A program made the translations under genes and the position numbers. Shown piece after piece: positions 2,979 through 5,793 of a stretch of DNA of 5,793 nt. The notes under the pieces were generated by a model. It worked only from the letters and a program-made list of their open reading frames with translations, did not search any database and had not been told where the DNA came from. Position 1 is the first letter of the stretch, and each line of letters opens with the position of its first letter. Where the stretch lies: the NCBI RefSeq assembly GCF_003334785.1, contig NZ_QOWV01000041.1. One strand, 5' to 3'. This DNA comes from Escherichia coli. Its GTDB lineage: Bacteria > Pseudomonadota > Gammaproteobacteria > Enterobacterales > Enterobacteriaceae.

Positions 2979-3181
2979 GCGGTTCAGTCGCGGAAATCAG
3001 TTGCAGAGCTGTAATGATATCTCCGGGAGTGCTGCGTTGGTAGGGGCATCCCGGGATAGAGAAATTTTAGCACTTTGCCCTGAATGATTGTAGACGTCCC
3101 GAGTACTCGTACCGGTCTGAGTTATTACAGTTAGATATTCACTTTTTCTCCCGCATACTTCACATCTGTCAACGACGGATG

Positions 3182-3208
3182 AAAAGTGGTTCTTCCGCAA
3201 CCTGGGTG
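3182..3208 (+). repeat. Left terminal inverted repeat of the ISL3-family element
   Basis: AAAAGTGGTTCTTCCGCAACCTGGGTG at 3182-3208 matches the reverse complement of 4889-4915 (AAAAGTGGCTCTTCCGCAACCTGGGTG) at 26 of 27 positions. Confidence 0.75.
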
Positions 3209-3261
3209 GAAGAAAATGGATGAAACTTTCTGGCGAACAAGGATCTAAGCTGTTTTAAGTT

Positions 3262-4881
3262 ATGGGCAACGCAATGCACTCTCTTAAGACACTTCTACAG
3301 TTACCTTGCGGATGGCGATGCAGTCGACAAATTATTAGCTCTGACGGTATAACCCTCCATCTCCACGGAAAACGCAAAACAGCACAATGTCCTGAATGCT
3401 TTAAGCGTAGCGACTCTGTTCATAGTTGTCGTCGGCGCCGGATACAGCATCTACCCTGCTCAGGGCAGACGCTATGGCTTGTATTTTCCGTCCGCCACTG
3501 GTACTGCCGTAACCCGGCTTGTTCACGTAAAATTTTTGCCGAGTCGCTTGCTCCCTTCGCCAGTTCACACCAGCAGTCTTCACAGGCGTTACAAAATTAA
3601 CAACGTCAACTGGGATTAATAGCTGGAGGTGAGGCTGGAAAACGGGCTGCAACGGCAGTGGGTCTCCGTTGCAGTGCTGATACTCTTCTTCGCAGGCTTA
3701 TCAATACCCCGGAGACGAAACAGTCAGGCGCGCCTCATGTCGGTATTGATGAGTGGGCGTGGCATCGGGGCCACTGCTGCGGTATGTTAATAGTCAATCC
3801 TGATACTCACCGTCCCCTCGTCCTGCTTCCCGGCCGTGATCAGCGTACGCTGGCGACCTGGTTCAGAAAATATCCGGAAATACAGGTTGTCTCGCGTGAT
3901 CGCAGTGGAGTCTATGCGACAGCAGCACGTGAAGGTGCACCTCAGGCCAGACAGGTGGCCGATCGATGGCACCTGCTAAAAAATATTGGTGATGAGCCTG
4001 AACGAATGATGTACAGATATATGCCTCTGATACGTCTTGTTGTCAGAGAGTTATCACTGAAGAAATCACCTGAGCCAGAAATATCTGTGCCTGTAGCATC
4101 GCTCCGTCGTCTGGAACGCCTTAAACAGCACATCCGCAAAAAACGGCATCAGCGTTGGACAGAGGTTATGGCCCTGCATAACAAGGGATGTAGTTTCAGG
4201 GAAATATCCCGTATTACAGGCCTGTCGCGAGTGACAGTCAGTCGCTGGGTGGGTTCAGGAACATTCCCTGAAATGTCAACTAGGCCTCCAAAGCGAGGGC
4301 TTCTGGACCCATGGAGGGAGTGGTTAAAAGAGCAACGAGAATGTGGTAATTATAACTCCGGCCGGATATGGCGGGAAATGGTGGCCAGGGGGGTTACAGG
4401 CAGTGAAACCATCGTCAGGGATGCTGTTGCCAAATGGCATAAAGGCTGGATCCCACCGGTTACTACTGCCGCAAGACTTCCTTCAGTGTCCCGGGTAAGC
4501 CGCTGGTTGATGCCCTGGAGAATAATCAGGGGTGAAGAAAATTATGCTTTCCGATTTATTAGTCTGATGTGTGAAAAAGAACCGGAGTTGAAAATAGCGC
4601 AGCAACTGGTACTCGAGTTCTACCGTATTCTGAAAACCTAAAATAAATCACAGCTAAGCAGCTGGTTCACTCGGGTCCACGAAAGCGGCTCAGCAGAACT
4701 TCGGTGCGTAGCTGCGGGGATGGAAGCTGATGCTGCGGCTATATGTGAGGCAATCAGCAGTCGCTGGAGTACTGGTGTTGTCGAAGGTCATGTAAATCGC
4801 CTGAAGGTGCTGATACGCCAGATGTATGGTCGAGCCGGACTTGAACTACTTAGGCGGAGGGTAATGAGTCCACTGGCATGA
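3262..4881 (+). pseudogene. ISL3-family transposase, ~539 codons in a single frame, interrupted by two in-frame TAA codons (3598-3600 and 4639-4641)
   Basis: The track ORFs 3262..3600 and 3658..4641, plus the unlisted segment 4642..4881, are all in frame 1. Family-like sequence continues directly across both TAA codons (..QALQN*QRQLGLIAGGEAGKR.. and ..EFYRILKT*NKSQLSSWF..STGVVEGHVNRLK..). There is no frameshift. Confidence 0.8.
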
Positions 4882-4888
4882 AAATCTT

Positions 4889-4915
4889 CACCCAGGTTGC
4901 GGAAGAGCCACTTTT
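4889..4915 (-). repeat. Right terminal inverted repeat of the ISL3-family element
   Basis: CACCCAGGTTGCGGAAGAGCCACTTTT at 4889-4915; its reverse complement matches the left repeat. It begins 8 nt after the transposase stop (4879-4881). Confidence 0.75.
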
Positions 4916-4924
4916 GCACTGTTC

Positions 4925-5253
4925 GTGACAGTATGGCCTTTATGTACTCACTTTGTTACCGGTAGCTGGATCATCACTACCGTGCCGCAAATGGTGGTGA
5001 ACAGCATCAATTGTGGAATGAATGTTGCCGAAGCGACCAATGCGCCTCGTTTCCACCATCAGTGGTTGCCGGACGAGCTGCGTGTTGAAAAGGGTTTAGT
5101 CCGGATACGCTCAAGCTGCTGGAAGCAAAAGGTCAGAAAGTGGCGCTGAATGAGGCGATGGGCAGCACGCAAAGCATTATGGTTGGGTCGGATGGTGAGT
5201 TGTACGGCGCATCCGACTCGCGCTTGGTGGATGATTTAACGGCGGGGTATTAA
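4925..5253 (+). pseudogene. ggt: gamma-glutamyltranspeptidase 3' remnant, 5'-truncated at the IS and carrying a -1 frameshift
   Basis: Translation ..VTGSWIITTVPQMVVNSINCGMNVAEATNAPRFHHQWLPDELRVEKG, then after a frame change PDTLKLLEAKGQKVALNEAMGSTQSIMVGSDGELYGASDSRLVDDLTAGY* (stop 5251-5253), matches the GGT C-terminus as I recall it from E. coli. One T is missing from the T-run at 5095-5097. Relative to the remembered sequence there is also a probable 12-nt in-frame deletion (GSPGGSRII read as GSWII). The 5' boundary is approximate. Confidence 0.8.
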
Positions 5254-5258
5254 TTGAC

Positions 5259-5285
5259 ATCCCCCGGCGCAATGTGCCGGGGGAT
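5259..5285. terminator. GC-rich hairpin between convergent ggt and phosphotriesterase-family genes; probable bidirectional intrinsic terminator
   Basis: ATCCCCCGGC (5259-5268), loop GCAATGT, GCCGGGGGAT (5276-5285): a perfect 10-bp stem. It is followed on the plus strand by AATGGTTTTATG and lies between stop codons at 5251-5253 (+) and 5293-5295 (-). Confidence 0.6.
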
Positions 5286-5292
5286 AATGGTT

Positions 5293-5715
5293 TTATGCGG
5301 TCAATAATCGTCCGGGATTATCGATACAGAGTTTTTTGAGGATCGTTTTATCGACGCCGCGCTCCGCCAGATAGGCCAGAAAAACATCTGGAACAAATCC
5401 CCAGCCATTACCGCCATTTTTAGCCCACATTTGTTTAAGGAAGACATCGTGGCTGAGAACAAGCTGATCGGCGTATCCCAACTCAATGAGATGAGCGACG
5501 GCATCGGCAGTCTCCTGCACCCCTGGCGCTATTCCCTCTTTCGGGAAGGTAATGTCTAGGCCAATCATGTCGAATTCCAGCCAGACACCTTTATCAAGCA
5601 TTTTCCGCTGATACGCCACGTCTTTTCCTGACGGATCCGAGTGTGCGAGAGAGACTTTATTTGGCGAGACGCCCATTTCACCTAACACAATGTCGAGTAC
5701 TTCGTAAGCGACTCG
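5293..5715 (-). pseudogene. Phosphotriesterase-family (PTE/Php-like amidohydrolase) gene, C-terminal ~140 codons only; frame closed upstream by an in-frame stop
   Basis: Minus-strand translation ..RVAYEVLDIVLGEMGVSPNKVSLAHSD..LVLSHDVFLKQMWAKNGGNGWGFVPDVFLAYLAERGVDKTILKKLCIDNPGRLLTA* aligns to the C-terminal half of E. coli Php-type proteins (..SMDIT..KANGGYGY..ENP..). An in-frame TGA at 5716-5718 ends the frame upstream, and no PTE-like continuation is seen in any frame of 5719-5793. The track ORF starts at GTG 5688. Confidence 0.7.
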
Positions 5716-5793
5716 TCAGAACCGTATTGATATTTACTGAGAGCTCAGATCAACTTTCCAGGGCAACAGATCGCGTACCCGGTTTGCCGGCCA

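Follow-up and report, generated by a model that had tools for sequence, protein, structure and literature searches.

The gamma-glutamyltransferase (ggt) sequence near the right end of a 5,793-nt stretch of Escherichia coli DNA (hereafter the window) probably represents what is left of a second, now non-functional ggt gene and not the organism's own ggt, a reading to which we assign a probability of about 0.87. The relic, or stub, occupies positions 4960–5253 on the plus strand as a 3' gene fragment, recognized by BLASTN, by its match to chain B of PDB 2DBU and by PGAP pseudogene annotation. The source of GGT activity is very probably the resident ggt located at ugpQ-yhhA-ggt-yrhB, a gene that the closest genomes carry in intact form; an intact resident copy in the window's own genome would follow by extrapolation from these close relatives. 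The stub is ordinary, widespread and already annotated in RefSeq, and no new biology comes from it. Its value is as a convenient marker of a variable E. coli region and of that region's Citrobacter/Salmonella-type ancestry, and as a caution: when a short stretch is read by itself, an incomplete core-gene copy bordering a mobile or translocated block can pass for decay of the core gene.

Identity and extent of the ggt fragment

Alignment to an intact E. coli ggt (that of strain RR1, used as the reference) gives 274/295 identities with one gap (BLASTN, E = 4e-125) and places the stub at nt 1449–1743 of the 1743-nt gene, which corresponds to residues 484–580, or the last ~98 codons. After correction of the frame, its translation matches residues 94–190 of the 190-residue small subunit represented by PDB 2DBU chain B (phmmer E = 1e-52), and ORFs translated from the stub locus have precomputed PF01019 hits; homology to GGT, an Ntn-hydrolase of family PF01019, is significant. 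This pairwise alignment, a check proposed in an earlier sequence-only reading of this DNA, shows homology, truncation and a 1-nt gap. In comparison with E. coli K-12 Ggt (PF01019; PDB 2DBU; WP_000595082.1), 89/97 residues of the frame-corrected stub are identical and the native stop codon (TAA, 5251–5253) is retained; however, the stub is partial, frameshifted, situated at another locus and ~92% identical at the nucleotide level, and it is not an ortholog of resident E. coli ggt.

The stub retains the last 17% of the gene and lacks the other 83%, which leaves it far short of a complete precursor comprising signal peptide, large subunit and small subunit (~580 aa). The signal peptide, the large subunit and small-subunit residues 1–93 are all absent, and alignment to intact ggt reveals no ggt homology upstream of position 4955. 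Thr391 is established in the GGT literature as the N-terminal residue of the E. coli small subunit, its autoprocessing site and its catalytic nucleophile; residue 1 of the small subunit lies outside the aligned range of the stub (94–190), which has no counterpart of this threonine. Lacking all of these parts, Thr391 among them, the stub cannot encode an enzyme. The 5' truncation proposed in the sequence-only reading is thus real, the stub starting at ggt nt 1449. The extent of 4925–5253 that went with it is correct at its right end, where the native stop codon lies, and wrong at its left end: homology begins at 4960, or 4955 at the earliest, and position 4925 is merely the start of an ORF, positions 4925–4931 being the outer end of the inverted repeat of an ISL3 element.

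The same feature is present in public annotation. In four genomes PGAP labels the stub 'gamma-glutamyltransferase; frameshifted; incomplete; missing N-terminus', with pseudogene limits equivalent to window positions 4961–5253, and the RefSeq/PGAP pseudogenes H7R13_RS08470, KFU70_RS00680 and WAZ83_RS04830 are the same feature as the stub of the window. The annotated pseudogene in NZ_AP022215.1 is 100% identical to it and has the same ISL3 and phosphotriesterase (PTE)-related neighbours; what sets the window apart from these annotated loci is a further interruption, at 5703/5704, of its PTE-related gene by an ISCro1-like IS66 element. A search of the literature for earlier descriptions of a ggt pseudogene in E. 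coli gave nothing relevant among the matches listed.

Distribution of the fragment and the state of resident ggt

A 421-nt query (positions 4880–5300) that runs from the ISL3 end through the stub into the PTE-related gene was used to count this junction; at a coverage of at least 80%, 2529 of the 5426 complete E. coli genomes have it (~47%). With resident ggt genes the match is confined to the central 70% of this query, at 90.9–92.9% identity, and no resident allele in the 5426 genomes is more than 92.9% identical to the stub, so that identity at the level of alleles of one gene was not found. The 5' 1440 nt of ggt, which the stub lacks, was found at a coverage of at least 80% in 5422/5426 genomes and at 5434 places in the whole set, or approximately one per genome; there is essentially no second full copy of ggt. 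Because so nearly all genomes contain this 5' part, no fewer than 2525 of the 2529 genomes with the stub must have most of ggt at another place. Resident ggt is itself diverse for a core gene: relative to the query allele, the identity of its 5' 1440 nt is at least 99% in 2371 genomes and 90–95% in 1871, the latter band including an ST131 strain, which represents high intraspecies divergence. Expression of GGT in E. coli depends on temperature, and growth near 20 °C suits assays of the enzyme best.

Two genomes stand out as close to the window. NZ_AP022215.1, in which the stub is identical, has an intact 1743-nt ggt at ugpQ-yhhA-ggt-yrhB, ~1.5 Mb from its stub; NZ_CP147059.1, which shares a rare deletion junction with the window (the Gp2 junction described below), also has an intact ggt at ugpQ-yhhA-ggt-yrhB, and the accession of its product (WP_000595082.1) is that of the ggt product of strain RR1. 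In all three genomes inspected the stub has ISL3 on one side and the PTE-related gene on the other and is not at the ugpQ-yhhA-ggt-yrhB position, and the genes beside it follow in the order PTE-related, DMT transporter, glutamine amidotransferase and PfkB kinase. In NZ_AP022215.1, the only locus covered to this distance, the genes on the PfkB side give way to IS remnants, followed by cobU-cobS-cobT.

These findings bear directly on the proposal, made from the window alone, that several independent lesions in ggt imply long-standing loss of GGT from this lineage. The lesions are for the most part genuine, and truncation, frameshift and eight fragment-specific replacements do identify a decayed pseudogene; since the window contains no other ggt, and since 4 of the 5426 E. 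coli genomes lack most of the gene, one might take the stub for the only ggt of the lineage, destroyed in place, leaving the strain and its lineage GGT-negative. However, the flanks of the stub are ISL3 and the PTE-related cluster (with cobUST near it at one locus) instead of yhhA and yrhB, an intact 1743-nt ggt occupies the canonical locus both in the genome with the 100% identical stub and in the one that shares the Gp2 junction, and the 2529 genomes with the stub overlap almost completely with the 5422 that have the 5' part of ggt. In-place destruction of a sole ggt is thus considered very unlikely. A second, intact ggt elsewhere had been named in advance as the observation that would overturn the inferred phenotype, and it is what NZ_AP022215.1 and NZ_CP147059.1 contain; the claim of GGT loss is therefore not supported, and a GGT-negative diagnosis drawn from the stub would misjudge the closest genomes sequenced.

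Lesions in the fragment and the order of its decay

The stub is read as two ORFs in different frames (4925–5149 and 5140–5253), and its alignment to ggt contains a single 1-nt gap between 4960 and the stop codon. Alignments place this −1 frameshift in a run of four A residues at 5088–5091 (plus strand), where intact ggt genes and one other stub allele, that of Logan contig L005, have five; one missing A at this point interrupts the reading frame. The local context is GTC GAA AAA GGG TTT AGC in intact ggt and GTT GAA AAG GGT TTA GT in the window. A −1 frameshift had been recognized in the sequence-only reading and is confirmed by the gap and the two frames, whereas its assignment to a T-run is incorrect: the TTT at 5095–5097 has the same length as in intact ggt, and the missing base is an A.

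The several substitutions also noted there amount to 20 relative to resident ggt, of which 8 are non-synonymous (R486W, L492P, D500N, Y501C, K547N, P560S, P570S and S572L). All eight replacements are specific to the stub when compared with the intact E. coli, Citrobacter and Salmonella genes, and seven of the residues replaced are invariant in those genes, position 501 varying between Y and F only.

A further lesion put forward in the sequence-only reading, an in-frame deletion of 12 nt, was rejected as an internal deletion, as the alignment has no such internal gap and the deletion can be placed solely at the extreme 5' edge of homology. When it is assumed there, GTTACCGGTAGC followed by TGG in the window pairs with GTTACCGGTAGC followed by CCAGGCGGTAGC (the bases presumed lost) and CGG in ggt, which corresponds to PGGS at residues 482–485 and lies between GGTAGCC direct repeats. 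By manual and global alignment this placement gains five matching bases, GTTAC at 4955–4959 (plus strand), as possible extra homology to ggt codons V478-T479. Judged by the repeats, loss between two GGTAGCC copies would be mechanistically plausible.

The L005 allele is 98% identical to the stub and shares with it exactly the end of the IS, the spacer and the junction to ggt. It retains A5 and the intact-type GTC and AGC codons, is open in frame for 87 aa, and differs from the window at 7 other positions over 451 nt. Because it shares the 5' junction yet keeps A5, the truncation is older than the frameshift. The changes specific to the window allele relative to L005 and intact ggt cluster within 15 nt (C>T at 5086, loss of A in 5088–5091 and C>T at 5100); the cluster may reflect one event affecting several bases, or else a short conversion tract. 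When the frame-corrected stub was used as a protein query, only short proteins of up to 174 aa were retrieved, among them the L005 allele (P0002), and no donor was named by them. The most divergent stub allele sampled (98.6% identical) has acquired an extra internal stop, and neutral decay of the stub is ongoing.

That the frameshift might be a homopolymer error of sequencing or assembly, leaving a stub that is truncated and in frame, is suggested by its position in a homopolymer (A5 to A4) and by the presence of A5 in the L005 contig. Against it, 14 of 14 fragment-bearing complete genomes sampled evenly down the ranking have the stub length of the window and hence the frameshift, and when the unframeshifted allele was sought among complete E. 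coli genomes the best matches still had the 1-nt gap, covering 450 nt of the 451-nt query. PGAP flags the frameshift in four independent assemblies, and L005, with its 7 other differences, is a distinct allele and not a corrected read. An error of this kind is thus hardly credible, and a stub without 83% of the gene would be left even if it were in frame.

The ISL3 element and the left edge of the fragment

To the left of the stub lies a degenerate ISL3-family insertion sequence (3166–4931, plus strand), delimited by its terminal inverted repeats, PGAP annotation and a plasmid copy. The inverted repeats are imperfect (43 nt, 81% complementary) and occupy 3166–3208 and 4889–4931; between them the transposase is a pseudogene with internal stops (3262–4881), annotated by PGAP as 'ISL3 family transposase, internal stop' at equivalent coordinates in three other loci (L001, L002 and L089). 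An independent copy on plasmid pLR-24_1 confirms the sequence of the element's end through ~4926. The transposase gene of the window is split into ORFs of 112, 327 and 53 aa; other assemblies (L007 and L008) contain a 459-aa transposase ORF, and decay of the element is thus polymorphic.

As expected of an IS-truncated relic, the repeat of the element ends at 4931, ggt homology starts at 4955–4960, and the missing part of ggt is not found beyond the element, which is bordered on its left by a zinc-ribbon gene belonging to a P4-like island and not by ggt. A 23-nt spacer (4932–4954) separates the IS end from the start of ggt homology; compared by eye, about one quarter of its bases match ggt upstream of codon 478, which is the level expected by chance, and no other match to it was identified. 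The spacer is identical in the diverged L005 allele. Simple insertion of ISL3 into ggt was rejected as an explanation, there being neither a target-site duplication nor ggt on the other side of the element. Because a search for an 8-bp direct repeat flanking ISL3 found none, an IS-associated deletion or recombination is suggested rather than simple insertion. Loss of the 5' 83% of ggt may thus have been mediated by ISL3, from which 23–28 bases separate the ggt homology.

Right-hand neighbours and origin of the fragment

The stub is followed by a GC-rich, terminator-like hairpin with a 12-pair stem (5259–5285, located by terminator scan) that lies between it and the convergent PTE-related (PF02126) gene. 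The 3' 411 nt of this gene are present (5293–5703, minus strand), 100% identical up to 5703 to the L001 copy annotated as WP_000656347.1; at 5703 the gene of the window is cut by an IS. In a scan of species-representative genomes the PTE-related protein is closest to those of Citrobacter (87% amino-acid identity) and Salmonella enterica subsp. diarizonae (85%), with no Escherichia species representative among the hits. Three Citrobacter species (C. portucalensis and two Citrobacter sp.) have ugpQ-yhhA-ggt followed by a convergent PTE-related/DMT/GATase/PfkB cluster, and in S. enterica subsp. diarizonae, where the locus is cut by the stored range, ggt adjoins the same cluster. An intergenic hairpin of different sequence occupies the same position in both. 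The native ggt loci of these bacteria thus resemble the stub locus in their convergent cluster and hairpin position; they differ from it in that their ggt is full length (580–581 aa) and ~80% identical to the stub in nucleotide sequence and, in Citrobacter, in that ggt follows ugpQ-yhhA, unlike the stub.

Because Citrobacter and S. enterica subsp. diarizonae share the cluster and the hairpin position, and what follows resident E. coli ggt bears no relation to the sequence beyond the stub, the stub and its right-hand neighbours form one ancestral block of which the stub is the cut edge. The DMT transporter and PfkB kinase genes are pseudogenes in the inspected E. coli genomes (L001 9451–12458; L002 12160–14533), as is the amidotransferase gene in strain PI7; it appears that the whole imported block, and not the stub alone, is decaying.

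With nucleotide identities of ~92% to E. coli ggt and ~80% to the ggt of Citrobacter and Salmonella, the stub is clearly closer to the former. Eight of the ten synonymous differences common to both stub alleles carry the state of at least one outgroup, counts that are small and that were polarized with outgroups ~80% identical, such that homoplasy is possible. Because of the two levels of identity and the outgroup states of these synonymous differences, comparison of the sequences points to a donor lineage related to Escherichia and lying outside the sampled diversity of E. coli ggt, rather than to a recent resident copy.

The sequence of events would be as follows. In the donor, the PTE-related cluster would have lain directly downstream of ggt, as it does in Citrobacter and S. 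enterica subsp. diarizonae, and the block would have comprised the ggt 3' end, the hairpin and the PTE-related, DMT transporter, glutamine amidotransferase and PfkB kinase genes. A transfer or translocation event would have brought this block to its present place in E. coli, beside the remnant of a P4-like island and, where visible, near cobUST. Sequence upstream of approximately codons 478–484 would have been lost, with degenerate ISL3 now abutting the edge, and the stub would then have drifted neutrally, accumulating its eight fragment-specific replacements and later losing one A from the A5 run. There is about an even chance, in our estimate, that a P4-like island/IS complex captured the segment downstream of ggt from an unsampled Escherichia-like lineage, ~7–8% diverged at ggt and with the Citrobacter-type ggt-PTE arrangement; if so, the stub is a marker of that donor and of the breakpoint left by an old transfer between lineages, which ~47% of E. 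coli now carry.

An origin within the genome, by duplication (IS-mediated, for example) of the 3' end of resident ggt followed by decay and with no foreign donor, would account for the much greater likeness of the stub to E. coli ggt than to the Citrobacter and Salmonella genes; it would also agree with the outcome of the species-representative scan with the PTE-related protein, which yielded no donor genome whose intact ggt-PTE arrangement matched (>97%). However, the hairpin and PTE-related cluster 3' of the stop codon are syntenic with Citrobacter and S. enterica subsp. diarizonae and are not resident-ggt sequence, the identity of any resident gene to the stub reaches no more than 92.9% in 5426 genomes, and the outgroup state of eight of ten shared synonymous differences is not that of a copy of resident ggt. 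Duplication is thus judged improbable, and acquisition of the block from an Escherichia-related lineage is preferred. The data fit a lateral transfer of the block and, equally, its ancient translocation out of a ggt-PTE arrangement ancestral to Escherichia.

Other junctions and genes of the window

The element that interrupts the PTE-related gene is of the IS66 family and ISCro1-like; from GTAAGCGACTCG on, its terminal 90 nt (5704–5793) match the end of an annotated ISCro1-family copy base for base. The PTE/IS66 junction at 5703/5704 occurs in 0/5426 complete E. coli genomes (spanning query, coverage of at least 80%). An istB junction at 186/187 near the left end of the window, where the first 144 nt of IS100 istB (44–187) are fused directly to a segment found 1154 bp further along in strain PI7, is likewise in none of these genomes. 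Exact-protein look-ups with two ORFs that span junctions gave no match, and the 131-aa ORF left of the PTE-related gene is on record in four contigs, the three of them that were listed having a structure unlike that of the window.

The left part of the window has two deletions in comparison with its best E. coli matches. At 1489–1496 a deletion of 1666 bp relative to strain PI7 has removed the 5' end of an inovirus-Gp2-family gene and everything from there to the AlpA-like regulator gene; both alignment pieces overlap by 8 nt at this junction, which suggests microhomology. The Gp2 deletion junction is present in 3/5426 complete genomes (JKHS016, AST198 and FT130). An AlpA-like gene lies at 1295–1510, and after the Gp2-family gene there are two overlapping paralogous zinc-ribbon genes (DUF7828 and Zn_ribbon_11; 2176–2978). 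Together, the zinc-ribbon genes and the AlpA-like gene look like the remnant of a P4-like island module.
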